Shown piece after piece: positions 126-27,169 of a DNA stretch of 28,475 nt; position 1 is the first letter of the stretch, and each line of letters begins with the position of its first letter. Origin of the DNA: Pseudomonadota bacterium (lineage in GTDB: Bacteria; Pseudomonadota; Alphaproteobacteria; ATCC43930; CGMCC-115725). The stretch spans positions 1 through 28,475 of the forward strand of contig JAJYIC010000002.1 of the NCBI GenBank assembly GCA_021790295.1, read 5' to 3'. The notes beneath the pieces are model-generated. The model had not been told where the DNA came from. It searched no databases and saw only the letters and a program-made list of their open reading frames with translations. The position numbers were made by a program, and so were the translations under genes.

Positions 126-230
126 TCTGAGGCGCCTCTTCTCGGGGAAGCAAACGAGGCCATTTTCGCGGGCGAACTCGCTCTTTCCCCGAGCGAAATC
201 CAAACCCTCAGCGCGGAACGGGTGTTGTGA
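126..230 (+). pseudogene. 3' remnant of a family III (CaiB/BaiF) CoA-transferase
   Basis: EAPLLGEANEAIFAGELALSPSEIQTLSAERVL* matches the C-termini of the other transferases in this window (PLLGQHNDEVYGGVLGL..ELRGRGVI; PRLGADNEMVLGSLLGL..ELVAAGAV). Its TGA overlaps the GTG start of the next gene. Left boundary is approximate. Confidence 0.75.
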
Positions 231-1402
231 GCAAAGCAAAAAGAAAGGGCGCTCTCGAGGGGGTTCGCATCCTCGATTTCAGTTGGGTTTGGGCGGGACC
301 CCAGGCGACCAAGATGCTCGGCGCCATGGGCGCGGAAGTGATCAAGATCGAAACCGCGACGCGGCCCGAATTCACCAACCGCGTCGGCTGGTTCCGCGTT
401 CTCAACAACAACAAGAAAAGCTGCAGCATCGACATACGCCACCCCCGAGGCCAGGATCTGATCCGCGCTCTCGCGGTCAAAAGCGATGTCGTGGTCGAGA
501 ATTTTTCCTCCGGCGTTTTATCGAAGTATGGGCTCGGTTACGAAGATCTCCGGCGCCTCTGCCCCGACATCGTTTTCCTCTCCGCTTCGGGCGTGGGGCG
601 CACCGGCCCGCAACAGAGCGCTCTTGCCTACGGCACGCTGTTGCAAGCCTATAGCGGCCGCGCGGGGATGATCGGCGCCGTCAATCCGCGCATGGAAGCG
701 ATGGGGATCCAGCCCGCCTGGACGGATCCCATCACCGCATTATGGGAAGGGGTTGCGATCCTCGCCGCCCTCATTCATAGGCGTCAGAGCGGAGCGGGCG
801 CCTTTATCGATCTCTCGATGCTCGAAAGCACCGTGGCGCTTTTGCCCGAGGCTCTTTTGCGTCAAGGGCTCGGTTTGAGCGAGGCGGGAGGGAATTCGGA
901 AAAGGGCGCCGCCCCTTGCGGCTCTTTCCGCTGCGCGGGCGAAGATGCCTGGCTCGCGCTTTCGGTGCGCTCGCAGGAAGAGTGGCTCGGGCTTGCCCGG
1001 GCGATGAGGCGCCCCGATCTCGAGGCGGACCCGCGCTATGCCGACCCTTCCCTCCGCCTCGCCCAAAAAGAGGCGCTTGACGGCGAAGTCGCCGCCTGGC
1101 TGCGGGGAGAAGACGCGGCCGAAGCCGAAGCGCTGTTGCAGGCGCAGAGGGTTCCGGCGGCGCGGGCGCGCCATATCGGTGAGTTGATCGAGGATCCTCA
1201 CGTCATCGCCCGCGGGCTTTACGCCCACCTTGCGGACGGCTCCTGCACGACCACGCTCCCCTGGATCGACGACACCGGCGGGCGCGGCGTTTCGACGCCA
1301 ACGCCGCGCCTCGGGGCGGATAACGAGATGGTTCTCGGTTCGCTTTTGGGCTTGAGCCGGGAGCGCATCGAGGAACTCGTCGCCGCCGGAGCGGTGCGCT
1401 GA
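227..1402 (+). CDS. Family III CoA-transferase (CaiB/BaiF), subunit carrying the catalytic Asp
   Basis: LEGVRILDFSWVWAGP, GAEVIKIE, NNNKKS, DVVVENF and WTDP (Asp codon at 725-727); GTGA start/stop overlap. Confidence 0.93.
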   Translation: MSKAKRKGALEGVRILDFSWVWAGPQATKMLGAMGAEVIKIETATRPEFTNRVGWFRVLNNNKKSCSIDIRHPRGQDLIRALAVKSDVVVENFSSGVLSKYGLGYEDLRRLCPDIVFLSASGVGRTGPQQSALAYGTLLQAYSGRAGMIGAVNPRMEAMGIQPAWTDPITALWEGVAILAALIHRRQSGAGAFIDLSMLESTVALLPEALLRQGLGLSEAGGNSEKGAAPCGSFRCAGEDAWLALSVRSQEEWLGLARAMRRPDLEADPRYADPSLRLAQKEALDGEVAAWLRGEDAAEAEALLQAQRVPAARARHIGELIEDPHVIARGLYAHLADGSCTTTLPWIDDTGGRGVSTPTPRLGADNEMVLGSLLGLSRERIEELVAAGAVR

Positions 1403-1474
1403 AGAGGGGCGCGCCTCTCGCGTCCCTTTGCGCCCCGGTTCCGCGCCCTTTCAACGGCAAAAGGAGAAGAAGGC

Positions 1475-2464
1475 ATGCGCCCAGTCCTTTCAGTCGAGCC
1501 GCCCGAGCTTTTCTTCGAGGATTTTGACGAAGGCGGGGAATTTCCGGTCGAGACCCGGGGGCCTTTGATGGTCGGCCATCAGGTGCGCTGGGCGGGCGCG
1601 ACCGACAATTACGATTCGGAATTCCACCACGACGAATATGTGGCAAAGGCCCAAGGGCTGCCGGGAATCCTTCTCTCCGGCCCTTTTATCGCCGCCTGGC
1701 TTCTCTCCTCGATCAACCGCTGGATGGGACGAGAAGCGCGCGTCCTGCGCTTTGCCGACCGCAACACCGGCTGGATCATGCCGCGCGAGGTTTTGCGCTT
1801 TGAGGGCCGCGTCGCAAGCACCGCCCGGCAGGAAGGAGGAGGCCTTGTCGATCTCGATTGCCGGGTCGAAAACGATCGCGGCGTTACGGTGACGACGGCG
1901 AGGGCGAGTCTCCTCCTGCCTTCGCGCGAGAAAAGCGCCAAGAGGGCGGCGCTTTCGCCCCTCGCACCGGAAGAAAACGCCAGGGAAAACGGCACGGAAA
2001 ACCGGGCGCCCGTTGGCGCCGGGGCGCTCGAAGCCGAACTGCAAAAAATGCTCGGGCCGATGGGCGAACCCGAAACCTTGCCGATCGAACTCCTCGCCGT
2101 CAGGCGCATGGCGACGACCGTCGAGGATTTCGATCCGATCCATTTCGACGAGGAAAAAGCGCGCTCCCGCGGCTATCGCGGGATCGTCGCGCCTTGGCCC
2201 ATCCTATGGCTTCTCTATTTCAACTGTTCGCATCAGAGGCCGCAATTCTCTTTCGGCAAGGCCACCGTTCACGGCGAAGACGCCTATGCGTTTTTCGAAC
2301 CGATCATCGTTGGCGACAGCATCACGGTCGAGGCCGCGGTCACCGATGCGCGGGTGAAAGAGGGCCGTTCCGGCCTTCTCGGCTTTCTCACGACGGAGCG
2401 CCGTTTTGTCAACGGTTCGGGGAAGTTGTGCGCCACCCTGCGCACCCTCGTGATCAGGCGTTGA
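1475..2464 (+). CDS. Double hotdog-fold (MaoC + MaoC_dehydrat_N-like) acyl-CoA hydratase/dehydratase
   Basis: Domain 1: FFEDF..G, RWAGATDNYDSEFHHD, GLPGILLSG. Domain 2: EDFDPIHFDEEKARSRGYRGIVAP, HGEDAYAFFEPIIVGDSI. AGGAG RBS upstream. Confidence 0.88.
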   Translation: MRPVLSVEPPELFFEDFDEGGEFPVETRGPLMVGHQVRWAGATDNYDSEFHHDEYVAKAQGLPGILLSGPFIAAWLLSSINRWMGREARVLRFADRNTGWIMPREVLRFEGRVASTARQEGGGLVDLDCRVENDRGVTVTTARASLLLPSREKSAKRAALSPLAPEENARENGTENRAPVGAGALEAELQKMLGPMGEPETLPIELLAVRRMATTVEDFDPIHFDEEKARSRGYRGIVAPWPILWLLYFNCSHQRPQFSFGKATVHGEDAYAFFEPIIVGDSITVEAAVTDARVKEGRSGLLGFLTTERRFVNGSGKLCATLRTLVIRR

Positions 2465-2576
2465 AAAGGGTTCCCGGATTAGACACGGGAGCCTGCCTGC
2501 GAGGATCGAGACCCTTGGGTCAGGCCCCGCAAGGCGGCTTCCGCTGCGGCTTCGGCTCTGCCCTCGGCATCACTTC

Positions 2577-2780
2577 CTAGGGCGCGCGGGCATAGTTTTC
2601 GGGGTGGGCGAGAAACTTGCTGCGACATTCGAGGCTGTCGAAATAATACCACGTACCGTTGTAGAATTGCCGCGTCCCCTTCGCCGGATCGGTCTCCGGT
2701 GCGCCGTGGGCGGTAAAACCTGTGGTCGCGCGCGCCGCCCTTTCATCGATGGCCTTGCCGCAAACCGGACACTCTGCCAT
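2577..2780 (-). CDS. YHS/TRASH-like small metal-binding domain protein
   Basis: CPVCG...YNGTWYYFDSLECRSKFLAHPENY follows the YHS pattern. It lies 57 nt downstream of the acyl-CoA dehydrogenase on the same strand, with GGGGAG upstream. Confidence 0.8.
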   Translation of the reverse strand: MAECPVCGKAIDERAARATTGFTAHGAPETDPAKGTRQFYNGTWYYFDSLECRSKFLAHPENYARAP

Positions 2781-2837
2781 GCCCCTTTTCTCCCTTTGCT
2801 GATTGCGCGCGAAATTTTCCGGCTTCTCGCTCCCCTT

Positions 2838-4019
2838 TCAGGGTTCGGGAACGACCGGCACCGGTCTCCCCAGAATGACGCGCCCCGGATGGTCGAGAAG
2901 CGCCTCGGCGATCCGCGCGCGATGCTCGTAGCTGGTGCCGAGCCTCAAGGTCCATGCCGCGACGCGCCGGTACCAGAGGTGAAGGTCGAATTCCATCATA
3001 AAGCCGATCCCGCCATGGATCGTCTGGCAAAGGCGAACCACCGCCTCGCATTTCTCGTTGCAAAAGGCCTTGGCCTGGGAAACCTCGACAGCGGCCGGAA
3101 GGCCCTGATCCATCTTCCAAAGCGCCTCAGAGGTGAGAAGCTCGCCGCCGTCGATCCACATCAGCATGTCGGCGCCCATATGCCAGATCGATTGGAAGGC
3201 GCCGATAGGCTGGCCGAAAGCGCGGCGGAATTTGGCGTATTCGATCGCGGTTTCGAAGTCTTTGCGCGTCGCCCCCAGCATCTCCGAGCAAAGAAGGGCG
3301 GTCGCCTCCTCCAAGAGGCGCTGCGCGGCCGGCGCTCCCTCATGGAGCCTTCCGACAAGAGAGGATTTGGGGACCAGGACATCGGCAAAGGTCACTTCGC
3401 TCACCTTGTCTTTGGCGAGGGTGACGAGAGGCCTCTCGGAAATGCCGCGGGTCTTGGTGTCGACAAGGAAAAGCGAAAGCCCGGCGCTTTGCGGCGAAGC
3501 CGGAGCGGTGCGGCAAACGACGAGACAGCGATCGGCGGCGGCAAAATTTTCGACAAAAAGCTTGGTGCCGTTGATGACGAAATCAGCGCCCGACGCTTTC
3601 GCTTCGGTCTTGACCGTTTGCGGGAGAAAACGCGGATCCTGTTCCGAGAAAGCCCAGGTGAGGACGGTGTCGCCGGCGCTGACGGCCGGCAGCAGGGAAG
3701 CCTTCTCTTCTTCCGAGCCCTCTCTTGCAACGGCGAGAGCCGTCACCACCGTAGAGAGAAGCGGCAAAGGGGCGACGGCGCGCCCGATCTCTCCGAAAAT
3801 GAGGCCGAGATAGGTGAGAGGCATGCCGCTTCCGCCATAGCGTTCGGGCAAAGCCATCCCTTGCCAGCCGAGATCCGCGGCCTTTTTCCACAACGCCGGA
3901 GGATAGCCTTTGGCGTCGTTTTCCATCTCGCGTACGAGGCGGGTCGGGCATTCCGCCTCGAGGAACTTGCGGGCGGTCTCACGGACCATCAATTCTTCTT
4001 CAGTCAGTGTCGTATCCAT
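2838..4019 (-). CDS. Acyl-CoA dehydrogenase, beta-type subunit of a probable heteromeric pair
   Basis: Start re-assigned to MDTTLTEEELMVRE (GGAGG upstream). Motifs: INGTKLFV, EYAKFRRAFGQPIGAFQ, HGGIGF..EFDLHLWYRR. Confidence 0.92.
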   Translation of the reverse strand: MDTTLTEEELMVRETARKFLEAECPTRLVREMENDAKGYPPALWKKAADLGWQGMALPERYGGSGMPLTYLGLIFGEIGRAVAPLPLLSTVVTALAVAREGSEEEKASLLPAVSAGDTVLTWAFSEQDPRFLPQTVKTEAKASGADFVINGTKLFVENFAAADRCLVVCRTAPASPQSAGLSLFLVDTKTRGISERPLVTLAKDKVSEVTFADVLVPKSSLVGRLHEGAPAAQRLLEEATALLCSEMLGATRKDFETAIEYAKFRRAFGQPIGAFQSIWHMGADMLMWIDGGELLTSEALWKMDQGLPAAVEVSQAKAFCNEKCEAVVRLCQTIHGGIGFMMEFDLHLWYRRVAAWTLRLGTSYEHRARIAEALLDHPGRVILGRPVPVVPEP

Positions 4020-4101
4020 AAGAGATCCTCCAGGAAGAGCCCCTTTCGGGCCTCGCCCGTTTCGATCATTGCGCCTGAAAAAAGCCGGCCTCGAACCGCC
4101 C

Positions 4102-5331
4102 TCACTTGCGCGGCATGTCGAGACCGCGGCGGGCAACTTGGTCGCGCATGACCTGAGTGCTGCCGTGGTTTATCCCGGACTGGAAGGCGCCCATCAGATT
4201 GTGGGCGAAAACGCCGCTTTCGATCGCCAGAGGCGAGCCGTTGAGCAACTGCCCGTAAGGCCCCAAAATCTGGGCGATGGCTTCGGTCGTCTTGACCCCG
4301 TGTTCGGGCGCCCAGACCTTCTCGGCAGAACCTTCATAAGTGAAATTGCCGCCGTGCTCGACGATCGACATGCTGCGCATCGTCATCAGGCGGCAGATCT
4401 GGGCCTCGATCCACAATTCCGCGATCTTGTCCCTGACCGCCGGATCCTTGGCCGGGGCATAACCGTCGAAGCTGTTCTCCTTGATCCAATTGACGATATC
4501 TTCGTCGCGGCGGACCGAAATGAGATAGCGCATGGCGCCGACCCGGTCGAGGTTGAGCCCCATGGCGCCGACCCGCCAGCCTTCGTTCTCCGCTCCGAGA
4601 AGAGCCGACCGCGGCACCCTTACGTCATCGAAGAAAACCTCGTTTGTCCGGGCCGTGCCGTAGGTCGTTCCGCTCGGCGCCCTGGGGGCGTTCTGGATCG
4701 TCCACAAAGGCCGCACGGTAATGCCCGGGGTATCCATCGGGATGAGAAAGATGGAGATGCCCCGGTGCTTGGGAAGATCGGGGTTGGTGCGGGCCATCAG
4801 GTAGATGTGGGTGGCGAAATGAGCGGCCGAGGTGTACATCTTCTGGCCGTTGATGGCGAACTCCTCGCCGTTGCCGACGCCGACGGCCCGGCACTGCAAG
4901 GAAGCGAGATCCGCCCCGGCGTTCGGCTCGGTAAAACCCAAGGCAAAGGAAACTTCGCCGCTGATAAGCCTTGGAATGAAATAGCGCTTCTGCTCTTCCG
5001 TTCCGGCGGCGAGGATTGCGGGCGCGCCGCTTCCGCCGAGCCCGACGGCGATGTTGACCCGGCCGAATTCTTCCTCGACGATGTATTGAGAGAGGCGGTC
5101 GCCGCCCTGCCCTCCGTACTCCTTGGGATAGCTGATCCCGAGCCAGCCGCGCGCCGCGATCTTTTGGAAAAGCTCGTAAAGAGGACCGCTTTTATGACGG
5201 CTCGGGCTTGCGCCGAAGCCGTCGTTCAACTCCTCCATCTCCGCGCGCAACTCCGGGGTCAGGTTTTCGGCGATAAAGGCGCGCACGCTTTTGCGAAGAG
5301 CCTCTTGCTCCGGTGTGTATCCGAAATCCAT
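4102..5331 (-). CDS. Acyl-CoA dehydrogenase, alpha-type subunit of a probable heteromeric pair
   Basis: MDFGYTPEQEALR, FALGFTEPNAGADLASL, INGQKMYTS, KHRGISIFL, NEVFFDDVRVP, ENEGW. It lacks the RxxFG..IG motif that the partner has. Confidence 0.93.
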   Translation of the reverse strand: MDFGYTPEQEALRKSVRAFIAENLTPELRAEMEELNDGFGASPSRHKSGPLYELFQKIAARGWLGISYPKEYGGQGGDRLSQYIVEEEFGRVNIAVGLGGSGAPAILAAGTEEQKRYFIPRLISGEVSFALGFTEPNAGADLASLQCRAVGVGNGEEFAINGQKMYTSAAHFATHIYLMARTNPDLPKHRGISIFLIPMDTPGITVRPLWTIQNAPRAPSGTTYGTARTNEVFFDDVRVPRSALLGAENEGWRVGAMGLNLDRVGAMRYLISVRRDEDIVNWIKENSFDGYAPAKDPAVRDKIAELWIEAQICRLMTMRSMSIVEHGGNFTYEGSAEKVWAPEHGVKTTEAIAQILGPYGQLLNGSPLAIESGVFAHNLMGAFQSGINHGSTQVMRDQVARRGLDMPRK

Positions 5332-5778
5332 CCTCGTCTCACTCCCTCTTCTTCCGGCTCGCGCAAACAGGGTTTGGCGCAGCCGGACCCTCGCGGGTTG
5401 CCCCGTGCCCCGAAGGACAGAACCGGGGGAAGAGACTATGACGCCAAAGAGGGGCTTCTCAACATGCGAATAAAGCGCCCCCCCGGCGCGGAATCATGGG
5501 CAAGACCCTTTGCCCCGGCGGCGGCCGCCGGAGCGATTGATCCAAATCAATGCCGCGTTTCGAGCGCCCGTCCGAGGCTTTGGCGGGCCGCGCCGGGCAA
5601 AGAGGACCCTAAACGCGGGAAGGCAGAGAACGGTTTTTCTTCGCCACGGCCGAAACGGCCGCACCGTTGGTGAGCCTTTGACGACGGCGAGAAAGCCCTG
5701 CCGCGCGGGAGGAGGCGCGCGCAACCCTGCCGAACGCTTTTCGAAGGGCGGAGAGGGTTTGCCGAGAGCGGCTTTGTT

Positions 5779-5784
5779 TATAAT
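5779..5784 (+). promoter_or_regulatory. Possible sigma70-type -10 element
   Basis: Perfect TATAAT in a GC-rich context, ending 6 nt before ATG 5791; no well-spaced -35 found. Confidence 0.35.
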
Positions 5785-5790
5785 AAGAGG

Positions 5791-6993
5791 ATGAACATGT
5801 TCCCCTCAGCATTGGACGACATCAAGGTTCTCGATCTGAGCCGGGGGATCGCTGGGCCGCTTTGCGCGAGGCTCCTCGGCGATTTCGGCGCCGATGTGAT
5901 CAAGGTCGAGCCTCGCGAAGGCGAATGCGGGCGGCGCATGCCGCCCTTTTTCGGGACAGAGCCCGATCCCGAAAAAAGCCTCTTCTTCCTTCTCGCCAAT
6001 CTCAACAAGCGCGGCGTCACCCTCGATCTCGAAACCCCGCAAGGCGCGGCCCTCCTCCGCGCCCTCGCCCGCAAGGTCGACGTCGTCGTCGAAAGCTTCC
6101 CTCCGGGCTATCTCGCCTCTCAGGGCCTCGATCTCGCCTCTCTCGAAAGGGAGAACCCGGGGCTCATCATGACCTCGATCACGCCTTTCGGCCAAACCGG
6201 CCCCAAGAGCCATTACAACGGAAACGAGATCGTCGCCTACGCGACGAGCGGAATCATGCACATCAGCGGCACCGCCGATCGCGAGCCTTTGAAACACGGC
6301 GGGTTTCCCGCCCAGTACGAGGCCGGCATGAACGGCATGCTGGCGACTCTCATGGCGCTCCTGGTTCGCGACGAAACCGGAGAGGGCCAGGCGGTTGACG
6401 TCTCGGTGCAGGAGGTTGCGGCCTCGACCCTGGTGATCAATCAGCCTTATTACAGCTGGAGCGGGGGCGTCCAGAACCGCCGGCGTTCGGAGGGGAGCCT
6501 TTTCGGCCAGGTCACCCCATGCAAAGACGGGTTTTTTGTCTGCCAGGAAGGCGGCGGCGCCTCCTGGGATGAGCTGGCCGATTTTTTCGGGCGGGAGGAA
6601 TTGAAAGAGGAGCGTTTTGCCGATCCGGCGCAAAGGGCTTTGAACGGAGAAGCTCTCGACGAGATCCTCTTGGCCGCGACCTGCGAACGCAGCATGGCGG
6701 AAATGTTCGAGACCGCTTGCGGGAAGTACCGGATGCTGTTCGGGATCGTGCAGACCCCTGCCGACCTTGCGCGCTGTCGCCAGCTCGAAGCGCGAAAATT
6801 CTACGAAGAGGTGGACCACCCGGTGATCGGCAGGATCAGGGTTCCATTCCGCCTCTTCAACATGACCGCCGGCGGCGCCCAGTGCCGGCGTCCCTCCCCT
6901 CTCCTCGGCCAGCACAACGATGAGGTCTACGGCGGCGTCCTCGGGCTTTTGGAGAAGGAACGCGCGGAATTGCGCGGCCGCGGCGTCATCTGA
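5791..6993 (+). CDS. Family III CoA-transferase, probable non-catalytic subunit (Asp replaced by Gln)
   Basis: KVLDLSRGIAGPLC, GADVIKVEP, NLNKRGVTLDL. FPAQYEAG has Gln (6313-6315) where the catalytic Asp aligns. Start could be 5797. Confidence 0.92.
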   Translation: MNMFPSALDDIKVLDLSRGIAGPLCARLLGDFGADVIKVEPREGECGRRMPPFFGTEPDPEKSLFFLLANLNKRGVTLDLETPQGAALLRALARKVDVVVESFPPGYLASQGLDLASLERENPGLIMTSITPFGQTGPKSHYNGNEIVAYATSGIMHISGTADREPLKHGGFPAQYEAGMNGMLATLMALLVRDETGEGQAVDVSVQEVAASTLVINQPYYSWSGGVQNRRRSEGSLFGQVTPCKDGFFVCQEGGGASWDELADFFGREELKEERFADPAQRALNGEALDEILLAATCERSMAEMFETACGKYRMLFGIVQTPADLARCRQLEARKFYEEVDHPVIGRIRVPFRLFNMTAGGAQCRRPSPLLGQHNDEVYGGVLGLLEKERAELRGRGVI

Positions 6994-7044
6994 GTTTTGC
7001 AACTGGGCTGCAGGGCGCCGGGGATGGTGAGGAGCGAAAGCGGA

Positions 7045-8412: not shown

Positions 8413-8548
8413 GCGTCTGCGGCCCGCCGCAGGGACAAGAGGGCCGCGGCGCAAGCGGCCGAAAGGCAGCGGGGCTCTGCCCGCGACGCGGGCAGAGGAA
8501 GGCGGTAGAATGCGGCAAACGGGTCAAACCCGAGGATCGGAGGCGCCG

Positions 8549-10177
8549 GTGAAGACCACGATCACAAGCATGATTTCTGGGGAAAGGGAACGCGCGATCC
8601 GGCAGGGACGGTTCTGGCCGGACCGTCTCATCACCGACTATCTCGACCGAAACCTCGAAGAGAGGCCGCAAGCTCTCGCCGTCGTCGACGAGAACAGCAT
8701 GACCGGAGAGAGGGATGCCCTCTCTTATGCCGAACTCGGCCGCCGGGTGGATTGTCTGGCGGCAGGTCTTGCCCGGCTCGGCTTGAAGCGCGGCGATGTC
8801 CTCTCCTTTCAGCTTCCGAACTGGTGGCAGTTCACCGCCCTTCACCTAGCGGCGATGAGGCTTGGCGCCATCACCAACCCGTTGATGCCGATTTTTCGCG
8901 AACGCGAGCTTCTTTTCATGCTCTCTCTCGCCGAAACGAAAATCTTTGTCGTGCCGCGCTCCTTCCGCGGTTTCGATTATAGGGCGATGGCCGTGGCGTT
9001 GCGCCCCAAACTTCCGGCCCTGCAGCGCGTTCTCGTCATCGGCGGCGAAGGCGAAGAGGCGTTCGAGTCTCTCCTCGAAGAGCCGGGCGATGTGTCCGGA
9101 TCGCCCGCAACCGCAGACGAAGTGATCCAGGTGCAATTCACTTCGGGCACCACAGGTGAACCGAAAGGGGTGATGCACAGCTCGAACACGCTTATTTCCG
9201 CCCTTACCCCTTATGCCGAGCGTCTCGGCCTTTCTCGATCCGACGTCTTCCTCATGGCATCGCCCATGGCGCATCAGACCGGCTTTATGTACGGTTTGAT
9301 GCTGCCGATCGTTCTCGGGGCAAAGGCCGTCCTTCAGGATATCTGGAGCCCGCAAAAGGCGGCCGATCTCGTCGCCGCGGAGCGCGTCAGCTTTACCATG
9401 GCGGCGACCCCGTTTCTCGCCGACCTCACCGCCGAGGCAGAGCGGCGTCCCGCCGATTTTAGGAGCCTTCGCATCTTTCTTTCCGCCGGCGCCCCGATCC
9501 CGCGCGTTCTCGTGCGCCGCGCCGCCGAGCATCTCGGCGCCGCCATCATCTCGGCCTGGGGCATGACCGAAAACGGCGCCGTCACCACGACAAAGCCCGA
9601 AGACCCTGCCGAAAAGGTGTTCGAGACCGACGGCTGCGCTTTGCCGGGGATGGAGATCCGCATCGTCGATGAAGAACGACGGGTGCTGCCCGCGGGGGTC
9701 GAGGGACGCCTCGAAGTGCGCAGTTGCAGCAATTTCGCCGGTTATCTGAAACGCCCGGAATGGTACACGATCGACGCGCAAGGCTGGTTCGACAGCGGCG
9801 ACCTCGCGCGCATGGATAAAGAGGGATATGTGCGCCTCACCGGCCGCACAAAGGACATCGTCATCCGCGGCGGGGAGAACATCCCGGTGGTCGAGGTCGA
9901 AGGTCTCATCTACCGGCACCCGGCGGTGGCCGAGGCGGCGATCGTCGCCATGCCGGATGCGCGTCTCGGAGAACGCGCCTGCGCCTTTGTCGTCACCCGC
10001 GAAGGCCGCCCGCTTTCCCTTGCCGAACTCTCGGAGTTTCTTTTGGCGCAAAAGATCGCCAAACCCTATCTGCCCGAAAGGCTCGAAATCCTTTCGGCAT
10101 TGCCGAAGACGCCCTCCGGCAAGATCCAGAAATTCCGTTTGCGCGAGATCGCTAAGGAATTCGGCGCGGCCGAGTGA
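8549..10177 (+). CDS. aliA: Cyclohexanecarboxylate-CoA ligase-like (AliA-type) acyl-CoA synthetase
   Basis: FQLPNWWQF, NPLMPIFRERE, FTSGTTGEPKGVMHSSNTL, MASPMAHQTGFMYG, AWGMTE, FDSGDL, PKTPSGKIQKF. GTG at 8549 has GGAGG upstream; alternative ATG at 8510. Substrate not provable from sequence. Confidence 0.8.
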   Translation: MKTTITSMISGERERAIRQGRFWPDRLITDYLDRNLEERPQALAVVDENSMTGERDALSYAELGRRVDCLAAGLARLGLKRGDVLSFQLPNWWQFTALHLAAMRLGAITNPLMPIFRERELLFMLSLAETKIFVVPRSFRGFDYRAMAVALRPKLPALQRVLVIGGEGEEAFESLLEEPGDVSGSPATADEVIQVQFTSGTTGEPKGVMHSSNTLISALTPYAERLGLSRSDVFLMASPMAHQTGFMYGLMLPIVLGAKAVLQDIWSPQKAADLVAAERVSFTMAATPFLADLTAEAERRPADFRSLRIFLSAGAPIPRVLVRRAAEHLGAAIISAWGMTENGAVTTTKPEDPAEKVFETDGCALPGMEIRIVDEERRVLPAGVEGRLEVRSCSNFAGYLKRPEWYTIDAQGWFDSGDLARMDKEGYVRLTGRTKDIVIRGGENIPVVEVEGLIYRHPAVAEAAIVAMPDARLGERACAFVVTREGRPLSLAELSEFLLAQKIAKPYLPERLEILSALPKTPSGKIQKFRLREIAKEFGAAE

Positions 10178-10316
10178 GGCCCACCGGGAAAAGAGGGCCC
10201 TTCGAATAGGAGGGGCTCGACCCTCTCGCAGATCAAATAGAGAGCGCAGGATGGGGCCATCCGTCCGCCTCGGGCTTTCCCCGCGCGTCTGCCGCGCTTC
10301 CCTCGGATCAGCCTTT

Positions 10317-11156
10317 CTATGCGCTTCCCTTCGACGATTTCCATCCCATCGCCGCGAGCATTTGCGCGGCCCGGCCGAGGTCTTCGTCGGGATCGGCCGA
10401 GATGATTTCGAGAACGACGGGTCCGCGATAGGAAATCTCCTCCAGAACCGGCGGGAGGGCGGCAAAAGGGACAGAGCCCGAGCCGATCGGCCCGTGGCGG
10501 TAACGATCCCGGTTCGTATCGGAGAGATGCAATAGGGAGAGCCGCTTGCCTATCAGACGCAAGGCCTCGGACAGATCCTCGCCGGCGAAATAGCCGTTCG
10601 CGGCGTCATAAACGAGGCCCAAACCGTCGAAGCCATAGCCTTCGAGAACGGCAAGCAAAGAGGCCGCACGCGGCAGGAACGCAAACGGCATGTTCTCGAC
10701 CCAAAGCGCGACGCCGAGCGCTCTTGCCCGCGGCAAAAGCTGATCGAGAGCGGCAAGAAAATGCGGCAGAAGGCGTTCCGGCGGTTCCGGGAATAGGCCG
10801 TTCGCCTTGCCGGGCCCGATGACAACCCCCGGCACTGCGAGATCGGCGGCAAGTTCGACCACCCCGCGCAGGATCGCAACCGTATGAGAGCGCATCTCGC
10901 GCGCCGCCGCGGCGAGATTGAGATCGATGTTCGGCATGTTGAGGGCGATGATGCCGAGGCCCCTTTCGGCAAGGGAGCGGCGCAAGGCCGCTCTTCCCGC
11001 GCCATCGACCTCGCCGGGCCACAGATGGCCCGGATACATCATCACCTCGAAATCGCAAAACCCGCGCCGGGAAAGGCGTTCGAGACATTGCGAGAGCGGA
11101 AGGCTTTGGATGTAGGAATAGGTATTGGCGACAAACGGGCTTTCCGGCCGAGCCAT
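10317..11156 (-). CDS. Sugar phosphate isomerase/epimerase family (xylose-isomerase-like TIM barrel)
   Basis: Start at MARPESPF. Metal-ligand motifs WVENMP, YDAAN, LHLSD, RHGPIGSG and VVLEI are present. Confidence 0.88.
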   Translation of the reverse strand: MARPESPFVANTYSYIQSLPLSQCLERLSRRGFCDFEVMMYPGHLWPGEVDGAGRAALRRSLAERGLGIIALNMPNIDLNLAAAAREMRSHTVAILRGVVELAADLAVPGVVIGPGKANGLFPEPPERLLPHFLAALDQLLPRARALGVALWVENMPFAFLPRAASLLAVLEGYGFDGLGLVYDAANGYFAGEDLSEALRLIGKRLSLLHLSDTNRDRYRHGPIGSGSVPFAALPPVLEEISYRGPVVLEIISADPDEDLGRAAQMLAAMGWKSSKGSA

Positions 11157-11275
11157 AGGCTTTTCCCCCCTTGCCGGCTCGCCGCCTGCGCCCCTTTCCC
11201 CCGCTCGCCTTTGCGCGTCATCCATTTGCGGCGGCGGCGGAAAGACGCTCTGGCCTAAAGCCGCCGCAACGGCCT

Positions 11276-11548
11276 TCAGGCTACCTTCCAGATCTCCCCG
11301 GTTTTGGCGAGATGCCGGATCGGCGTGATGCTTTCGACCTGCCAGCCTTTCTTTTGCAGCCAGGCTTCGAAATCCGCCTGTTTCTGGCCGTGGCATTCCG
11401 CCAGAAGGCGCCCGTCGGCAAGCGCGAAAACAGTGGTGATGGTGGTGCGCGGGTCGGCGCGCCACTCTTTGGTCGCCTTCATTTGCGCGGTGAATTTCGC
11501 GACGTCGTCCCATCCGGGCGCCGTCCCGATCGCAATCCAGCGTCCCAT
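11276..11548 (-). CDS. Hypothetical 90-aa protein
   Basis: Strong AAGGAGAG RBS, normal amino-acid composition, and position between co-oriented cluster genes. Confidence 0.8.
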   Translation of the reverse strand: MGRWIAIGTAPGWDDVAKFTAQMKATKEWRADPRTTITTVFALADGRLLAECHGQKQADFEAWLQKKGWQVESITPIRHLAKTGEIWKVA

Positions 11549-11606
11549 GATCTCTCCTTTACAAATGCGAGGCGGGCCCTCTCGGAAAGGGCCTCGTCGA
11601 GGTTAT

Positions 11607-12110
11607 TTATGCGCCTTTCGGCGGCACGAACGGATAGGGGATCGGGCGGCCGCCGCGGATCGGCAAAACGATGGTCGCCTTCCCCGGACAGCTTTCGACG
11701 TCGCCGTCGAGCCTCATGCCGACATCGAGATCGACAAAACCAAGCCCTTCCTTTTCGGATTTGCCGGTGGCTTTCGCCCACACGGTGAGGGTGTCGCCCG
11801 GAACGATCATCGCCCGGTGCTGGAACGACACCTTCCACGGCCAGCCGTCGGGAAGACACAAGTCTTTGAGATAGCGCGGCAGGATGCTCTGCTTCCAGGA
11901 TCCCTGCCCGAGGATGTTAGGCAGGCCGTCGTGGTAGACCGCAAAATTCTGGTCGTAATGGATCCGATGCCAGTTTTCTATGGCCGCGCTCCAGCGGAAG
12001 AGATGGGTCGGCGTCATAGGGCCGATGACGAGAGGCGGCAATTCTGCGCCGACGCTCACGTCGTCGTAATAGAGCTGAGCCTTGAAGCGAAGCTCGTCCG
12101 CGCTCACCAT
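11607..12110 (-). CDS. MaoC-like hydratase subunit with an Ich/Meh/HTD2-type motif
   Basis: LYYDDVSVG, LFRWSAAIENWHRIHYD, DGLPNILGQG, VPGDTL; AGGAGG RBS. Confidence 0.88.
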   Translation of the reverse strand: MVSADELRFKAQLYYDDVSVGAELPPLVIGPMTPTHLFRWSAAIENWHRIHYDQNFAVYHDGLPNILGQGSWKQSILPRYLKDLCLPDGWPWKVSFQHRAMIVPGDTLTVWAKATGKSEKEGLGFVDLDVGMRLDGDVESCPGKATIVLPIRGGRPIPYPFVPPKGA

Positions 12111-12122
12111 GACTTCTTCCTC

Positions 12123-12707
12123 CTAACGCCTGATGGTCGACGCCCGCAGGATGCAAAGGCGGTCGCCGTCCTGGTTGGTGTAGGTCGTCTCCGTCGTGAT
12201 GACGAGCATCGGGCTGCCGTCCTTGGTGATGTGCCCTTTGATGTCCGCGTAACGCGCTTGCGAATAGATGCGGTCGCCCAATCGCGGGTATTGGTAAAGC
12301 TCGATCTCGTTGCCGGCGTTGAGAATGCGCTTCAACGGCGTCGGCACCGGCGGCAAGGCCCCGGGCCCGCTGTCGCCGCCTTCGCGTACCCCGCCGATGC
12401 CGTCCGACTCCGGGTTTTCGCGAAACGCGCGCGAGATCGGGTCTTCGGCGCCGGCCGGCGTTTTGCGACTCAAATACGAGCAGTAGATCGGCGGCGTCAC
12501 GATCCCGCCGAAGCGCGTCTTCCTGGCAAATTCCTCATCCCAGTAACGCGGATCGGGATCCATGATGGCATTGGTAAAAAGGCGCAAACCCTCGCGCTCG
12601 ATGCCCCAACGGGGGCTTGCTTCGACCCTCTCGGCCGAGGTGCCGATCAACGCCTTTATCTTGTCGGTCAAAGGATTTTCGGCTGCGCCGGTCTTGGCCT
12701 CGCTCAT
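12123..12707 (-). CDS. MaoC_dehydrat_N/FAS1-like hotdog subunit (partner of the next gene)
   Basis: AIMDPDPRYWDEEFARKTRFGGIVTPP, LNAGNEIELYQYPRLGDRI, YTNQDGDRL; ends 12 nt before the partner gene. Confidence 0.88.
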   Translation of the reverse strand: MSEAKTGAAENPLTDKIKALIGTSAERVEASPRWGIEREGLRLFTNAIMDPDPRYWDEEFARKTRFGGIVTPPIYCSYLSRKTPAGAEDPISRAFRENPESDGIGGVREGGDSGPGALPPVPTPLKRILNAGNEIELYQYPRLGDRIYSQARYADIKGHITKDGSPMLVITTETTYTNQDGDRLCILRASTIRR

Positions 12708-12797
12708 CGGCAGCTCCCTAAGGGTCTCGGACGATGGCGGGCCGGCTTTGCGATCGCCGGCCCGCCCACGAAAGCGTCTTCTTCGGGCCTTGGCCCT

Positions 12798-13997
12798 TTA
12801 CTTCGCCGGAACCATGGGCTTGGGGAAGAATTCCTCTTCCCACGGCCAGGCTCCGTTAACCTCGTAAGCGGGCAAGCCACCTTTGACGCGGTCGAGATAC
12901 GGGCTCGTTATCGGCTTGTCCCACGGATAGATGCAGCCTTCATAGGCCTTCGGACCGAGCATGAAGTGTTTTGCCTGCTCGATCGTTTCGACAAAAGGCG
13001 CATTGGCGTCGAACAACTGCTCGCGCCTTGTCGGCCGCGGGCCGGCGCGCGAGACATGACCAAAGGCATAACGGCCGATCATCTTTTCGAGCATCCAGGC
13101 GCATTCGACGAGCTTATTGAGATCGACCCCGGTCTCGATCCCCATGCCTTCGAGCATGTGCATGAAATCCTCGGTCGGCGCCATGCTGGTGGCGCGGCCG
13201 TTGCCGCAATAAGGGCAGCCGCCGATGCCGCCGACGGTGCCTTGAAGGCGCAGCGTGTCCTCGCCGTCGAGCGCCTTGATGGCGGCGTAAGCGGTGGGGA
13301 GCGCCATCCCTCGGGCGTTGTGAAGATGGGCGTTGAAGTCATGGATCTCGGGCCAGCGCTCTTTGACGCGGCCGAAGATCTGCTCGATCTTGAGAGGATG
13401 GCACCAGGCCATCGGGTCGCCGACGCTGACTGCGGTCACCTTGATGCCGACCGCGTCCCACAGCTCGTGCTGCTTTTCGAGAAACTTCATCGTCATATCG
13501 ACGCTGAAGTCGCCGACGAAATTGGAGCCGAAGGTGGCATTGGTTCCGATCCCGGCCGCCTTGGCGCCCTTGGCCACGGCGTTCTCGATGATCTGCGGCC
13601 AACGCGCCATTTCCTGCATCTGCGAGCGGTTGGTGTTGCGGCGCACGAAGACGTCGCATTGGTGGACAAATAGCCGCGGCACCCCGCTTCCGCGCTCGAT
13701 CGTGAGCGGCGGCGCGTATTGCTTGGCGCGCTCGACGCCTTTCTCGTTGAGGGCGAGAGCGGTGTATTTGACGCCTGGCTTCGGGTGGAACTTCTGCACG
13801 ATCTCGTCGATCCGAGCCATTTGCGGCGTGTATTTCGGACTGACGAAAGAGCCGACGACGATTTCCTCGAGACCGGTTTCGGAAAGGGCGTCCAAAAGCT
13901 CGACCTTGGCGTCGACCGGGATGTTGGCATCCTCGATCTGCATGCCCTCGCGCATCACCTCTTCGGTATAGACGATCTTGGGATATCGACCAGCCAT
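12798..13997 (-). CDS. HMG-CoA lyase-like DRE-TIM metallolyase
   Basis: EEVMREGMQ, GSFVSPKYTPQM, AHLHNARG, GGIGGCPYCG, APTED, GIETGVDL. Confidence 0.88.
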   Translation of the reverse strand: MAGRYPKIVYTEEVMREGMQIEDANIPVDAKVELLDALSETGLEEIVVGSFVSPKYTPQMARIDEIVQKFHPKPGVKYTALALNEKGVERAKQYAPPLTIERGSGVPRLFVHQCDVFVRRNTNRSQMQEMARWPQIIENAVAKGAKAAGIGTNATFGSNFVGDFSVDMTMKFLEKQHELWDAVGIKVTAVSVGDPMAWCHPLKIEQIFGRVKERWPEIHDFNAHLHNARGMALPTAYAAIKALDGEDTLRLQGTVGGIGGCPYCGNGRATSMAPTEDFMHMLEGMGIETGVDLNKLVECAWMLEKMIGRYAFGHVSRAGPRPTRREQLFDANAPFVETIEQAKHFMLGPKAYEGCIYPWDKPITSPYLDRVKGGLPAYEVNGAWPWEEEFFPKPMVPAK

Positions 13998-14016
13998 GGC
14001 ACTTCTCCTTGTTCGA

Positions 14017-15360
14017 TCAGTGAACCGCCGTCAACTCGCGCGCCTTGAGGGAGCGAATGCCCTGCAGTCTAGCATACAGCGTCTCGGCGGGGATGGCGGA
14101 ACCTCCAAAGGCGAGGCAATCGATAAACTTGTCGTGAAGCTGGGCTTCGGAAAGCGGCCTTTCGGCGTGTCCCGTTGCCCGGCTCACCTTCGGACCTTCG
14201 ATGCGCCGCCCCGACGACAGCTCGATGCACACCTGCTCCCAGGGCGGAGAGCGCCGGTTTTCGGGATCGACCTCATCGGTGATGTCGAGTTCGACCCGGC
14301 GCATCATGCTTTGCACCTCGGGACGGCGGACAAAGGAGTCGGTCAGCTCCTGAAGAGTGACGCGCCGGGCAATGAGGCTCGAGGCCATCGCAAATTCCAT
14401 GCTGAACTTGGCGGAAAGCCCTGTGTCCGGCTGATGGTTGCGCAGGATTTTCGAGGTCAGGCGGCCGAAATGGACCGAAACCTTGCGCACGTCGTCGGGC
14501 TTTACCGGATGTTCGGCGAGGAGTTCGAGGATGCTGTCGATGGCGCGGTGGGTGCCGTAACAGGCCGGATACTTCTTGATGCTGAGCCCGTGTTTGAGGA
14601 TCGCCCACTCCTCGCCGAGACGGCCGTCGCCGTCGCGATCGGGGCCGCCCTCCGGCGAGACGGCGGTGAGGAAGCCTTGCGGGTGTTCGAGAGCGTCCTC
14701 ACTCGCGGTGAAACCGGCTTCGGCGAGCCGCGCCGCCATGATCCCGGCATGGGCCGCGCGCCCGGCGTGAAAGGGTTTTGTCATGGTCCCGAAATTGGCC
14801 ATGATGCCGGCGCTTTGCGAGGCGCCGAGGGCGATCGCGATGGCCGTGCGCGCCGGATCGAGACGGCGCATCTTGGCGCAGGCCGCGGCCGCGCCGATGG
14901 CGCCGAAGATCCCGGTCGGATGCCAGCCTTTGGCGTGGTAGGTCGGCATGTCGCGCCGGCAAAGCTCGGCCCAGGTCTCGTAACCGGCGACATAGGCGAC
15001 GATCATGTCGAGGCCGCCCGCGTTCAAAACCTCCGCTTCGGCGAGGATCGCGGGAACCAGAACCGTCGACGGATGGCCCTGCATGCCGACGTCGTCGTAA
15101 TCGAGGGCATGGGCCGCGGCGCCGTTGATCCAGCCGGCCTCGGGGCCGGGGCTCCTCTCGCCGCTGAAATAAAGCGAGGCCGGCCCCGCCGGAGGTGCGA
15201 GGACGCTTTTGAGGATCTGCGTTGACGCCTCATTGCGCCCGGCGATCATGGTGCCGATGCAGTCCGTAAAGCCGAGGCAGGCAATCCTCACCGCCTCTTC
15301 CGGCAACCGGTTCGGCGACAGATCGGCGACGAACTGGCCGAGCGCTTTGGTGAGTGTCAT
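14017..15360 (-). CDS. MmgE/PrpD family protein
   Basis: Start at MTLTKALGQF. Motifs: NGAAAHALDYDD, GHPS, GWHPT, KPFHAG, KKYPAC, KFSMEF. Confidence 0.92.
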   Translation of the reverse strand: MTLTKALGQFVADLSPNRLPEEAVRIACLGFTDCIGTMIAGRNEASTQILKSVLAPPAGPASLYFSGERSPGPEAGWINGAAAHALDYDDVGMQGHPSTVLVPAILAEAEVLNAGGLDMIVAYVAGYETWAELCRRDMPTYHAKGWHPTGIFGAIGAAAACAKMRRLDPARTAIAIALGASQSAGIMANFGTMTKPFHAGRAAHAGIMAARLAEAGFTASEDALEHPQGFLTAVSPEGGPDRDGDGRLGEEWAILKHGLSIKKYPACYGTHRAIDSILELLAEHPVKPDDVRKVSVHFGRLTSKILRNHQPDTGLSAKFSMEFAMASSLIARRVTLQELTDSFVRRPEVQSMMRRVELDITDEVDPENRRSPPWEQVCIELSSGRRIEGPKVSRATGHAERPLSEAQLHDKFIDCLAFGGSAIPAETLYARLQGIRSLKARELTAVH

Positions 15361-15638
15361 TGTCCGTTCCCTTTCCCTGCAATCGCGGCGGCGATTGTCC
15401 CGGAGCTTTTTGTGCCGGCACTCTAGGCCGCCCGCCGCGCGCCCACCACGTTGTTTTCGCATATGAGATGAGAGGATTTCGAGGCGCCGGCGCCGCCCAT
15501 TTGCGCGTTTAGGGAAGGATCGGCGGCCGCGCGAAAGGCGATTCGATCGGGATCGACGAAATCCGTCGCGGCCGGCGTCGAGCAGCCTATGATCGAAAAA
15601 TAAAAGAGCCCAAACGAAGGTTTGAGGAAAGGACCTCT

Positions 15639-16514
15639 ATGAGCGAACCGAGAGCCGAGACGAACAAGGCCGAGAGCGCGGCCCCGGCCGAAGCCGCGCG
15701 GGCTTTTCTCGCCGAACTCGAACAAAAGGCGCGGCTTATCCGGACCCCCTGCGGCGAGGGGACGATGGCTTGGCGGCTCTGGGGCCGAGGGCCGGCGCTC
15801 GTCCTTTTCCACGGCGGCGCCGGCTCCTGGCGCCACTGGGTGCGCAACATCGAGTTGGCCGCGCGCAGCCGCACCGTGATCGCGGCGGACCTGCCGGGGC
15901 TCGGCGATTCAACGCGCGCCCCTGACCCTGTCGGCGCGCCGGCGATCGCCGCGATCGTTGCCGAGGGCCTCGATAGCGTCCTCGGCAAAGGCGAGCGTTA
16001 CGATATCGCCGGTTTCTCGTTCGGCGCGGTGATCGCAGGGCTTCTCGCGGCGCAAGGGAAAGAGCGCGTCCGCTCCCTGACCCTGGTCGGCTCCGGCGGC
16101 CTCGGACCGCCGAGCCGTTCGGTTCCTCTTCTCAAGGTTCGCGACAAGACCGGCGCGGAGAGAAGGGAGGCGCACCGCGCCAATCTCGCGCGGATGATGA
16201 TCTTCGATCCGGCGAAGATCGACGCTCTCGCCTTGGAGATCCAGGAAGAGAATTCGAAAAGGGCGCGCCTCAATAGCGGCGGCATGTGGATTTCGCCGGT
16301 CTTGCTGGACGCCCTGCCGCTGGTGCGCGCCCCGGTTCACGCCGTCTGGGGCGAACACGAGATGGCAGACCGCACCCTTCTCGATCGCCGCATTGCCCTC
16401 ATGCGGCAGGCGCGCGCCGATGCCGACGTGACGGTCGTCAAGGGCGCGGGACACTGGGTCTTTTACGAGGCGGCCGAAGAGTTCAACGCGCTCCTCGCGC
16501 TTTTCCTCGAATAA
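15639..16514 (+). CDS. Alpha/beta-fold hydrolase
   Basis: FHGGAGSW, DLPGLGDS, nucleophile elbow GFSFG, GAGHW; AGGA RBS. Confidence 0.9.
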   Translation: MSEPRAETNKAESAAPAEAARAFLAELEQKARLIRTPCGEGTMAWRLWGRGPALVLFHGGAGSWRHWVRNIELAARSRTVIAADLPGLGDSTRAPDPVGAPAIAAIVAEGLDSVLGKGERYDIAGFSFGAVIAGLLAAQGKERVRSLTLVGSGGLGPPSRSVPLLKVRDKTGAERREAHRANLARMMIFDPAKIDALALEIQEENSKRARLNSGGMWISPVLLDALPLVRAPVHAVWGEHEMADRTLLDRRIALMRQARADADVTVVKGAGHWVFYEAAEEFNALLALFLE

Positions 16515-18335: not shown

Positions 18336-18793
18336 CAGGAGACCTTTGGCCGGCAAAGCATCAAAGCCGCGCGTTTGCAGACGGCCACGATCTCGCCCCT
18401 CTGGTTGAGCCCCTGATGCTCGAATTCGACGATGCCGGCGTCGGCGCGCGAGCGGCTGCGGCGCGTGCCTAGCACGATCGTGCGCGCTCTCAAGGTGTCG
18501 CCGTGGAAGACCGGTTTTGGAAAGCGGACCTCGGTCATGCCGAGGTTGGCGACGGTGGTGCCGAGAGTGGTGTCGCCGACGGAAAGGCCGACGACGAGGC
18601 CGAGAGTGAAGATGCTGTTGACGAGGCGCTCTTTGAACTCCGTCCCTTTGGCGAATTCGGCGTCGAGGTGAAGGGGCTGAGGGTTCATCGTCAGGGTGGT
18701 AAAGAGCACGTTGTCCATCTCGGTAACGGTGCGCGTGGTCTCGTGCTCGAATATTTCGCCTTCGGCGAATTCCTCGAAATAGCGTCCGCTCAT
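18335..18793 (-). CDS. MaoC family dehydratase, Rv2499c-like
   Basis: [56 protein letters not shown]. Confidence 0.92.
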
Positions 18794-26618: not shown

Positions 26619-26657
26619 CGCTTTCTCCCTTTCATCCGCGCGGAATCGCCGCCGCCC

Positions 26658-27065: not shown

Positions 27066-27169
27066 CCCGCGAGGATGCCCGAACGGGAAGCCGCGCGGCA
27101 ATGCGACAGTCGGACTTTTTTGTAGGATTGCCGCATGCTATCGTCAGCGACGGCAACGGCAAGCGGGCA

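Follow-up and report, generated by a model that had tools for sequence, protein, structure and literature searches.

A nine-gene CoA-dependent catabolic module conserved among uncultured bacteria

Contig JAJYIC010000002.1 of the Pseudomonadota assembly GCA_021790295.1 carries, between positions 126 and 16,514, a group of genes for CoA-dependent enzymes that an earlier annotation made from the letters of the DNA (hereafter the sequence-only reading) had proposed to be a single conserved, uncharacterised catabolic system. We find that nine of these genes stay clustered in uncultured bacteria belonging to three or more phyla. They encode a YHS/TRASH-like protein (C), the beta and alpha subunits of an acyl-CoA dehydrogenase (ACAD; D and E), two family III CoA-transferases (G and H), a 90-aa orphan protein (K), two hotdog proteins (L and M) and a lyase of the HMGL fold (N). 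The module that they form is a real, conserved and uncharacterised catabolic system, which is like the methylsuccinate pathway in its working without being a member of it. Together with additions from its surroundings it would degrade a branched acid, most likely a 2-substituted succinate, to acetyl-CoA and a carbonyl product, an assignment drawn from enzyme homologies to which we give slightly better than an even chance. A full-text literature search did not find a description of the cluster, returning only the analogous methylsuccinate pathway (PMC12290011) and general surveys of SAR202 paralogues (PMC5395668).

Results

The DNA analysed here, referred to as the window, is the entire contig (C144; 28,475 bp) and belongs to a parent assembly of 2.7 Mb in 415 contigs that is 84% complete and has 64% G+C. 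Genes were identified by open reading frame (ORF) calling guided by G+C content at third codon positions (GC3), combined with Pfam and NCBIfam scans. This confirmed every gene of the sequence-only reading in its position and added two that it had omitted, B (a fused double-hotdog protein) and J (a TIM barrel). The starts of C, D and O were shortened to fit the lengths of their orthologues, with D now beginning at Met40 (orthologues, 388-393 aa).

Relatives of the lyase were collected from 185,579 species-representative genomes, one genome per species, yielding about 495 stretches that were each confirmed by tblastn. The best 80 of these 495 stretches, each with 10-kb flanks, constitute the related loci, against which all 21 proteins of the window were searched by tblastn. 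The nine core genes recur jointly, with identities of 50-86%. In 28 of the 80 loci the full set is contained in 8-12.7 kb, and at least four are found in 52, the 24 further loci holding four to eight core genes and many of these being interrupted by contig ends. By record title, the complete loci come from Alphaproteobacteria or unclassified proteobacteria (8), Betaproteobacteria/Burkholderiales (10), Dehalococcoidia/SAR202 (9) and Rokubacteria (1). Every one of the 80 records is a metagenome-assembled genome (MAG) or an uncultured assembly, with no named isolate among them, and their sources are peat, soil, groundwater, lakes, oxygen-minimum zones and mine drainage. The sub-operons lyase-M-L-K, ACADalpha-ACADbeta-YHS and G-H are found again in four long contigs whose genes were called independently; in the called loci, M always lies between the lyase and L, and K always follows L. 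The synteny expected of one conserved system is thus present for the nine-gene core.

The remaining genes of the cluster are distributed more narrowly. Close orthologues of the MmgE/PrpD-family gene O and the hydrolase gene P are confined to the nearest proteobacterial loci, and a PrpD-family gene is present in 26 of 49 core loci; O and P are loosely linked accessories to the core. None of the 80 related loci has A, B or I, anything matching A being only 25-34% identical, and J has an orthologue (71% identity, located after K) only in the nearest relative, L011. The sequence-only reading was to be given up if its genes did not co-occur in other genomes: the nine core genes do co-occur, and the four peripheral genes A, B, I and J do not travel with them and therefore cannot count as parts of the conserved system. 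Additionally, in 26 loci labelled Dehalococcoidia or Chloroflexi (L066-L089 and L093 among these), the lyase is found at 63-68% identity with no other core gene within 10 kb. As the lyase stands alone in many Dehalococcoidia, it may serve another context there, or its partners may lie elsewhere in the genome.

Several further gene families recur beside the core in other genomes. TctC-type receptors and SBP_bac_5 ABC systems adjoin it, as do luciferase-like (F420/LLM) and GMC oxidoreductases. Metallophosphoesterase-like genes are also recurrent neighbours, taking the form of Metallophos proteins of about 258 and about 200 aa in Alphaproteobacteria and of PGA_cap proteins in Dehalococcoidia; these and the oxidoreductases were noted in L001/L018, L015, L026, L030, L037 and L040. 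The slot after K is occupied in the window by J (10317-11273, minus strand), a xylose-isomerase-like TIM barrel (PF01261, 109.6 bits) with an uncertain start codon, and in alphaproteobacterial loci by a Metallophos gene.

The transferase genes G (5791-6993, plus strand) and H (6997-8412, plus strand) are separated by 3 bp, and their products match PF02515 over the full length (306.3 and 337.9 bits; cut-off 23.3). The best match of H in the PDB is BbsF (9fn0_B, 208.8 bits; next match, 172.4). G scores higher with BbsE (146 bits) than with BbsF (102 bits), and homomeric transferases outscore either, so that G, unlike H, is not specifically akin to its Bbs counterpart. Gln175 of G aligns with an Asp column common to 4ed9, 10uh and SUGCT, which we take to be the catalytic Asp of family III transferases; BbsE (9fn0_A) has Tyr at this position and so resembles G in lacking that residue. 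Among 43 orthologues of G the position is Gln in 33 and Leu, Met or Glu in the others, never Asp, and Asp200 of H is invariant in 40 sequences. A G subunit without the catalytic Asp beside an H subunit with Asp200 amounts to the BbsEF arrangement of two adjacent paralogous subunits, in which H, which also carries a C-terminal tail, is the predicted catalytic subunit and G the predicted structural one. The analogy with BbsEF drawn earlier is upheld in this respect. Both subunits have matches to succinate-hydroxymethylglutarate CoA-transferase as well (about 155 bits), and the NCBIfam equivalogs for succinyl-CoA:mesaconate and succinate-glutarate transferases score far below their cut-offs.

Two other genes of the cluster also concern CoA activation. 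A (227-1402, plus strand) is a lineage-specific family III transferase of the stand-alone type (PF02515 over the full length, 300.7 bits) that appears to keep its catalytic Asp: the Asp of its TDPITAL segment lines up with that of H after manual re-registering of the three-sequence alignment, in which MAFFT had put the two one column apart. A second transferase pair, for which a remnant at 126-230 had been invoked, found no evidence, and positions 126-226 contain nothing coding that belongs to the cluster. I (8510-10177, plus strand) is a lineage-specific, AMP-forming, AliA-like acyl-CoA ligase that is probably co-transcribed with G and H in the window and scores 738.4 bits with the cyclohexanecarboxylate-CoA ligase model TIGR03208 (cut-off 792.3).

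The ACAD genes E (4102-5331, minus strand) and D (2838-4019, minus strand) encode an alpha and a beta subunit, both with ACAD matches in Pfam (three domains in D). Among NCBIfam models, E corresponds to PimC (pimC_large, 171.5 bits) and D to PimD (pimD_small, 152 bits), and the best PDB matches of E are Tcur3483 (197.6 bits) and ChsE4 (188.8 bits), the alpha subunits of heteromeric steroid ACADs. In alignments to FadE3 and CarC, D reads LRLGT where MCAD-type enzymes have IYEGT, a substitution conserved in its orthologues, and it would therefore have no catalytic base. The pair thus resembles ChsE4-ChsE5, Tcur3481-Tcur3483 and PimCD in having adjacent alpha and beta genes, a beta subunit without a catalytic base, and an active site placed on the alpha subunit at the helix position of the IVD/ChsE type. 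Unlike in those systems, the alpha subunit reads LNLDRV where ChsE4 and Tcur3483 read LNHERV, which puts Asp262 at the Glu position, and carries His389 at the position of MCAD Glu376; both residues are invariant in 38 sequences. A strictly conserved loop insertion at about residues 213-230 is a further difference, as is the small YHS protein that is predicted to bind this subunit.

That protein, C (2577-2780, minus strand; 67 aa), has orthologues of 65-69 aa that likewise come after the ACAD pair. It has no Pfam hit at E <= 0.01, and its orthologues carry weak or faint precomputed YHS (PF04945) hits. Its CPVC...FDSxxC motif is likely to be a metal site. Positions 4 and 48 covary, being Cys/Asp in Proteobacteria and, among Dehalococcoidia loci, Asp/Cys in L053 and Cys/Cys in three others, which suggests a single metal site with four ligands. 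In a three-chain model of E, D and C, the small protein sits on the middle domain of E beside the insertion, with an interface score (ipSAE) of 0.67, compared to 0.00 for the best of three controls. Of 80 solved complexes 58 attain this mark, as do 2 of 110 mismatched pairs, counts that hold only roughly for the present model because it used its own alignments and three chains. The model supports binding of C to ACAD-alpha as a third ACAD subunit, and the predicted association of a YHS protein with an ACAD is new in this analysis.

The hotdog protein L (11607-12110, minus strand) has no Pfam hit. Its best PDB match is the C-terminal half of the Pseudomonas aeruginosa itaconyl-CoA hydratase (8khg/8huc), a weak one (E 0.005, 39 residues), and its neighbours in the protein atlas are clusters of MaoC, Htd2 and 3-methylfumaryl-CoA hydratase. 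Its motif ENWHRIHYD aligns with FNGHRIHYD of 8khg and is invariant in 50 sequences except for Arg/Lys at position 49, in agreement with the earlier description of L as a hydratase with an Ich/Meh motif. M (12123-12707, minus strand) matches FAS1_DH_region (PF13452, 66.3 bits), has weak HadA matches and corresponds to the N-terminal half of Ich. With the FAS1_DH_region on M and the Ich motif on L, the two are predicted to be the non-catalytic and catalytic subunits of a split hydratase of the Ich/Meh type. Ich and Meh themselves are single chains with an N-terminal MaoC_dehydrat_N/FAS1_DH domain, whereas M and L are separate genes in the window and in every called locus. B (1475-2464, plus strand; 329 aa), which is lineage-specific, has FAS1_DH_region/MaoC hits at residues 198-321. 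The N-terminal half of B is L-like (residues 11-169 against L, blastp E 4e-16) and the C-terminal half M-like, the reverse of the Ich domain order, and B may form with the adjoining transferase A a separate two-gene unit for activation and hydration.

The lyase N (12798-13997, minus strand) has thousands of homologues, of which the best 120 are 70-100% identical and almost wholly metagenomic. It aligns with 3-hydroxy-3-methylglutaryl-CoA (HMG-CoA) lyases over residues 5-320 (alignment to YngG, 1ydo), scoring 74.6 bits with PF00682 (cut-off 29) and 168.2 bits with NF004283, under its cut-off of 246. In common with the DRE-TIM enzymes HMG-CoA lyase, LiuE and (R)-citramalyl-CoA lyase, it has the TIM barrel and keeps the Arg, the HxH and the GGCPY loop (Cys261). 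In contrast to them, REG replaces RDG in 80 of 80 sequences, which exchanges the Asp metal ligand for Glu, and the position of Asn275 in human HMGL is Met, Gln or Leu in the N family, in an alignment that is uncertain near a two-residue insertion. A C-terminal arm also sets N apart: in the AlphaFold2 (AF2) model (mean predicted local distance difference test, pLDDT, 80.5), a confident barrel is followed by a Trp/Pro-rich arm of about 80 aa with almost no regular secondary structure, residues 314-345 being of low confidence. In comparisons with Swiss-Prot models, HMG-CoA lyases, LiuE and the Chloroflexus (R)-citramalyl-CoA lyase (A9WGE2) all share 27-30% identity with N, and isopropylmalate and homocitrate synthases 14-21%. 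This equal distance from the CoA-ester lyases, together with the remoteness of the synthases, marks N as what is by sequence a distinct subfamily within the CoA-ester lyase branch of the HMGL fold, and its former label of HMGL-type lyase can be kept in that sense. The non-standard active-site motifs remarked upon in the sequence-only reading are real and invariant among orthologues: the Gln175 site of G is never Asp, E has Asp262 and His389, and N has REG.

The orphan protein K (11276-11548, minus strand) has no Pfam or NCBIfam hit. Its AF2 model (pLDDT 95.5) shows a ferredoxin-like alpha+beta fold with an extra hairpin, for which a Foldseek search of the PDB returned nothing at E <= 0.001; among AlphaFold DB clusters, its own family aside, there were only weak matches, to DUF4242/SCO4226, muconolactone isomerase and ABM proteins. 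Searched with a profile, 1.84 billion representatives gave 55 clusters, in which every close relative (E up to 1e-11) is a short protein standing alone and a few weak multi-stretch matches fall in long proteins; no fusion that would assign a partner was found in this search. The 338 clusters at 90% identity are all metagenomic hypothetical proteins, and in the loci examined K occurs only in the context of the core cluster. Our guesses, based on the modelled fold, are a small isomerase or an accessory or adaptor subunit.

O (14017-15360, minus strand) matches the N- and C-terminal MmgE/PrpD domains of Pfam at 184.6 and 110.2 bits, and its best solved relative is iminodisuccinate (IDS) epimerase (2hp0/2hp3, about 210 bits). 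It keeps the equivalents of H85, D88, H99, H150, K198 and K266 (residue list from PMC12290011), the six dicarboxylate-coordinating residues, catalytic His included, that IDS epimerase also has. One difference is that Tyr145 of IDS epimerase, the second base, aligns with His in O, where a Tyr lies one residue earlier; another is that close orthologues of O are found only in the nearest alphaproteobacterial loci, other loci having PrpD paralogues of 30-34% identity. O is thus presumed to be an epimerase or isomerase of a free dicarboxylate, as the epimerisation step proposed earlier would have it. P (15639-16514, plus strand), divergent from O, is an alpha/beta hydrolase (Abhydrolase_1, Abhydrolase_6) resembling PcaD, MenH and HsaD. 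Its NCBIfam hits are all under cut-off, and its orthologues are 58-71% identical in 9 proteobacterial loci and 34-39% identical in 5 loci of Betaproteobacteria/Burkholderiales.

Discussion

The predicted activities can be arranged into a route in which O would interconvert the stereoisomers of the free acid, and the BbsEF-like pair, with H catalytic through Asp200 and G structural with Gln175, would form its CoA thioester. The heteromeric ACAD of E and D, probably with C on the middle domain of the alpha subunit, would then introduce a 2,3-double bond. Hydration by M and L would yield a tertiary 3-hydroxyacyl-CoA, which N would cleave into acetyl-CoA and a 2-oxo acid, the latter being replaced by a ketone for substrates other than succinates. 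A possible role for P is to liberate the acid from an ester or lactone; K belongs to the module with no assignable step. The order proposed earlier, in which the acid is epimerised, activated, dehydrogenated, hydrated and cleaved by retro-aldol reaction, fits these homologies.

In the itaconate cluster of Pseudomonas and Cupriavidus, the ACAD and PrpD genes encode methylsuccinyl-C4-CoA dehydrogenase and methylsuccinate isomerase (Gonner et al., 2025; PMC12290011), and the substrate of every MmgE/PrpD enzyme characterised so far is a four-carbon 1,4-dicarboxylate, which six conserved residues hold in place (PMC12290011). The residues kept in O, the BbsF-like transferase, the PimCD-like ACAD, the Ich-type hydratase and the TctC/ABC neighbours would together favour a 2-substituted succinate, by analogy with the habits of these families. 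Like the Msi-Ict-Mcd-Ich-Ccl route of Pseudomonas aeruginosa and Cupriavidus necator, the cluster described here combines an MmgE/PrpD isomerase for a free dicarboxylate, a family III transferase, an ACAD, a hydratase with the Ich motif and a C-C lyase yielding acetyl-CoA. However, it does not have the CitE/HpcH lyase, single-chain Ich and homomeric Ict and Mcd by which a cluster of the Pseudomonas type is recognised: its transferase is a predicted heteromer with one dead subunit, its ACAD a predicted heteromer with Asp and His in the active site and a probable YHS partner, its Ich is split into two genes, and its lyase is of the HMGL fold. The 90-aa protein K is an addition, the solved structure nearest to the PrpD protein is that of IDS epimerase, and the hosts belong to uncultured lineages.

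Several points weigh against degradation of a 2-substituted succinate by this route. The BbsEF transferase has a different regiochemistry and the Bbs route continues with a dehydrogenase and a thiolase, so that it ends in thiolysis rather than the lyase cleavage that follows hydration in the route predicted from the window. The replacement of Glu by Asp in E leaves dehydrogenase activity unproven, although Asp could serve as the base. The AliA-like ligase I points to an alicyclic mono-acid rather than a dicarboxylate, and, as the PrpD gene lies outside the strict core, the argument for a dicarboxylate depends on a loosely linked gene and on family habits. Moreover, an R-specific hotdog hydratase with an HMGL-type lyase is not among the known stereochemical pairings, which are crotonase with HMGL, or hotdog with a CitE-type lyase. 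The actual intermediates may therefore differ from those suggested by the citramalyl-CoA analogy. For leucine, only the R-stereospecific route of M. tuberculosis is documented in PMC6689899. Finally, RNA support for the locus was not found among the runs searched. The sole DNA run with 90% of the locus is a mine-drainage metagenome, and the metatranscriptomes of that study share next to no words with the locus, which is not evidence of silence.

The same order of enzymes could also act on a beta-branched or alicyclic mono-acid (cycloalkyl-acetic or 3-alkyl-branched), with the lyase releasing a ketone. A lyase for (1-hydroxycyclohexan-1-yl)acetyl-CoA (EC 4.1.3.35) is said to have been reported in Arthrobacter by Ougham and Trudgill in 1982, in a route to which no genes are attached. 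Such a substrate would suit the position of ligase I in the G-H operon, with 738 bits on the cyclohexanecarboxylate-CoA ligase model (cut-off 792), and the proximity of ACAD-alpha to enzymes for bulky steroid CoA esters; a beta-branch would require a lyase for tertiary alcohols; and luciferase-like and GMC oxidoreductases and hydrolases adjoin the core in other genomes. The cluster is also found in SAR202, a proposed oxidiser of alicyclic dissolved organic matter (PMC5395668). However, the ligase is missing from all 80 related loci, and the PrpD gene, BbsF-like transferase, PimCD-like ACAD and TctC receptors suit dicarboxylates better, making a mono-acid a rather unlikely substrate.

An unlikelier account is that the cluster replaces, with non-orthologous enzymes, a known route for methylsuccinate, mesaconate, itaconate or citramalate, or from 3-methylglutarate to HMG-CoA, in which case no new substrate would be involved. 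The sequence of steps is that of Msi-Ict-Mcd-Ich-Ccl (PMC12290011), the motif of L is that of itaconyl-CoA hydratase, N has no nearer relatives than (R)-citramalyl-CoA lyase and HMG-CoA lyase, and G and H have their matches to succinate-hydroxymethylglutarate CoA-transferase (about 155 bits). Yet all four activities are heteromeric, split or altered in motif, and are strictly conserved in that state. As the ChsE/ChsH systems illustrate, heteromeric or split ACADs and hotdog hydratases are known for bulky substrates. The contig, moreover, already has a CitE-type lyase and a MaoC hydratase beside fumC, and the low scores with the mesaconate and succinate-glutarate equivalogs also disfavour a known route.

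It is very improbable that the module runs in an assimilatory or biosynthetic direction, as in a glyoxylate or acyl-CoA assimilation resembling the 3-hydroxypropionate bicycle and using a transferase pair like SmtAB. Chloroflexus has heteromeric family III transferases, hydratases of the Meh type and an HMGL-type citramalyl-CoA lyase, and the cluster does occur in Chloroflexota; against this, carboxylases and Mct are not nearby in the called neighbourhoods, and most hosts are MAGs of heterotrophic Proteobacteria. The 3-hydroxypropionate bicycle as such was rejected because the conserved core ACAD pair has no role in it.

A steroid side-chain system of the ChsE/ChsH/Ltp2 type was considered separately and rejected, with no aldolase of the Ltp2 or DUF35 type and a hydratase of the Ich type.

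A chance neighbourhood of unrelated CoA-metabolising genes, which the absence of A, B, I and J from the conserved set and the many CaiB and ACAD paralogues of such genomes (PMC5395668) might suggest, is scarcely credible and is refuted for the core, since linkage and the order within sub-operons are preserved for nine genes in three phyla and the short, stand-alone K family is seen, in the loci examined, only beside them.

Regarding the origin of the locus, the 30 genomes nearest to its own hold no lyase orthologue (best match, 38% identical), and fumC of the contig (18790-20232) is 51-60% identical to genomes labelled as the same genus, order or class; vertical descent is therefore not traceable for the locus. 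The lyase of the window is 81% identical to that of Rokubacteria and 70-72% identical to those of Burkholderiales and Dehalococcoidia. These identities argue for horizontal spread of the module. Across most of the cluster (about 1-14 kb) the G+C content is 61-64%, reaching 66% in single 1-kb windows, compared to 63-69%, mostly 64-69%, elsewhere on the contig. The contig may be mis-binned, or the cluster region acquired.

In a broader reading, which we put forward tentatively and rate somewhat below an even chance, the core would be an undescribed pathway that gene transfer has carried among uncultured bacteria of soil, groundwater, peat, lakes and the ocean, SAR202 included; it would act on a common class of substituted dicarboxylic or alicyclic acids and contain three new enzyme variants. 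These would be an Asp/His ACAD whose third subunit is a metal-binding YHS protein, a DRE-TIM lyase with a Glu ligand (REG) and a C-terminal arm, and a new 90-aa family supplying a missing isomerase or adaptor step. Conservation across phyla implies a widespread substrate beyond current pathway maps, which may be a branched or carboxyl-rich fraction of organic matter. Identifying it would assign function to the large groups of CaiB-, ACAD-, PrpD- and HMGL-like paralogues that dominate such genomes, would possibly give genes to an orphan lyase activity, and would make a YHS-capped ACAD and a Glu-type DRE-TIM lyase available to enzymology and to the design of synthetic pathways.

Intergenic regions and neighbouring genes

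The ACAD and transferase operons diverge from an intergenic region (5332-5790) that is presumed to hold promoters. A 94-aa ORF at 5510-5794 is probably not a gene: family scans gave no hit, its GC3 does not pass the coding filter, and the related loci contain no counterpart. The only element shared by this region and the divergent region between O and P (15361-15638) is the 11-mer CCCTAAACGCG (5607-5617), which occurs in the two in opposite orientation. We roughly estimate that chance would yield about 0.06 such matches; the signal is weak, we do not claim it as regulatory, and the 11-mer could be an operator half-site or a coincidence. Family scans with Pfam and NCBIfam detected no regulator or transporter on the whole 28.5-kb contig, on which several ORFs have no family hit, and thus bear out a remark to that effect in the sequence-only reading.

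Beyond the cluster, an apparent operon on the minus strand (17463-20232) comprises a class II fumarase (18790-20232), a MaoC hydratase (18335-18793) and a CitE/HpcH lyase (17463-18356). The hydratase scores 146 bits with the RipB/Ich model (cut-off 340) and the lyase 166 bits with the RipC/Ccl model (cut-off 375), and together they look like a second, classical hydratase and lyase pair for CoA esters of the malyl or citramalyl type. This operon does not travel with the nine-gene core. Further along the contig, family assignments place an S41 peptidase with a PDZ domain at 22883-24523 (plus strand) and a folP-folB pair at 25797-27101 (minus strand).

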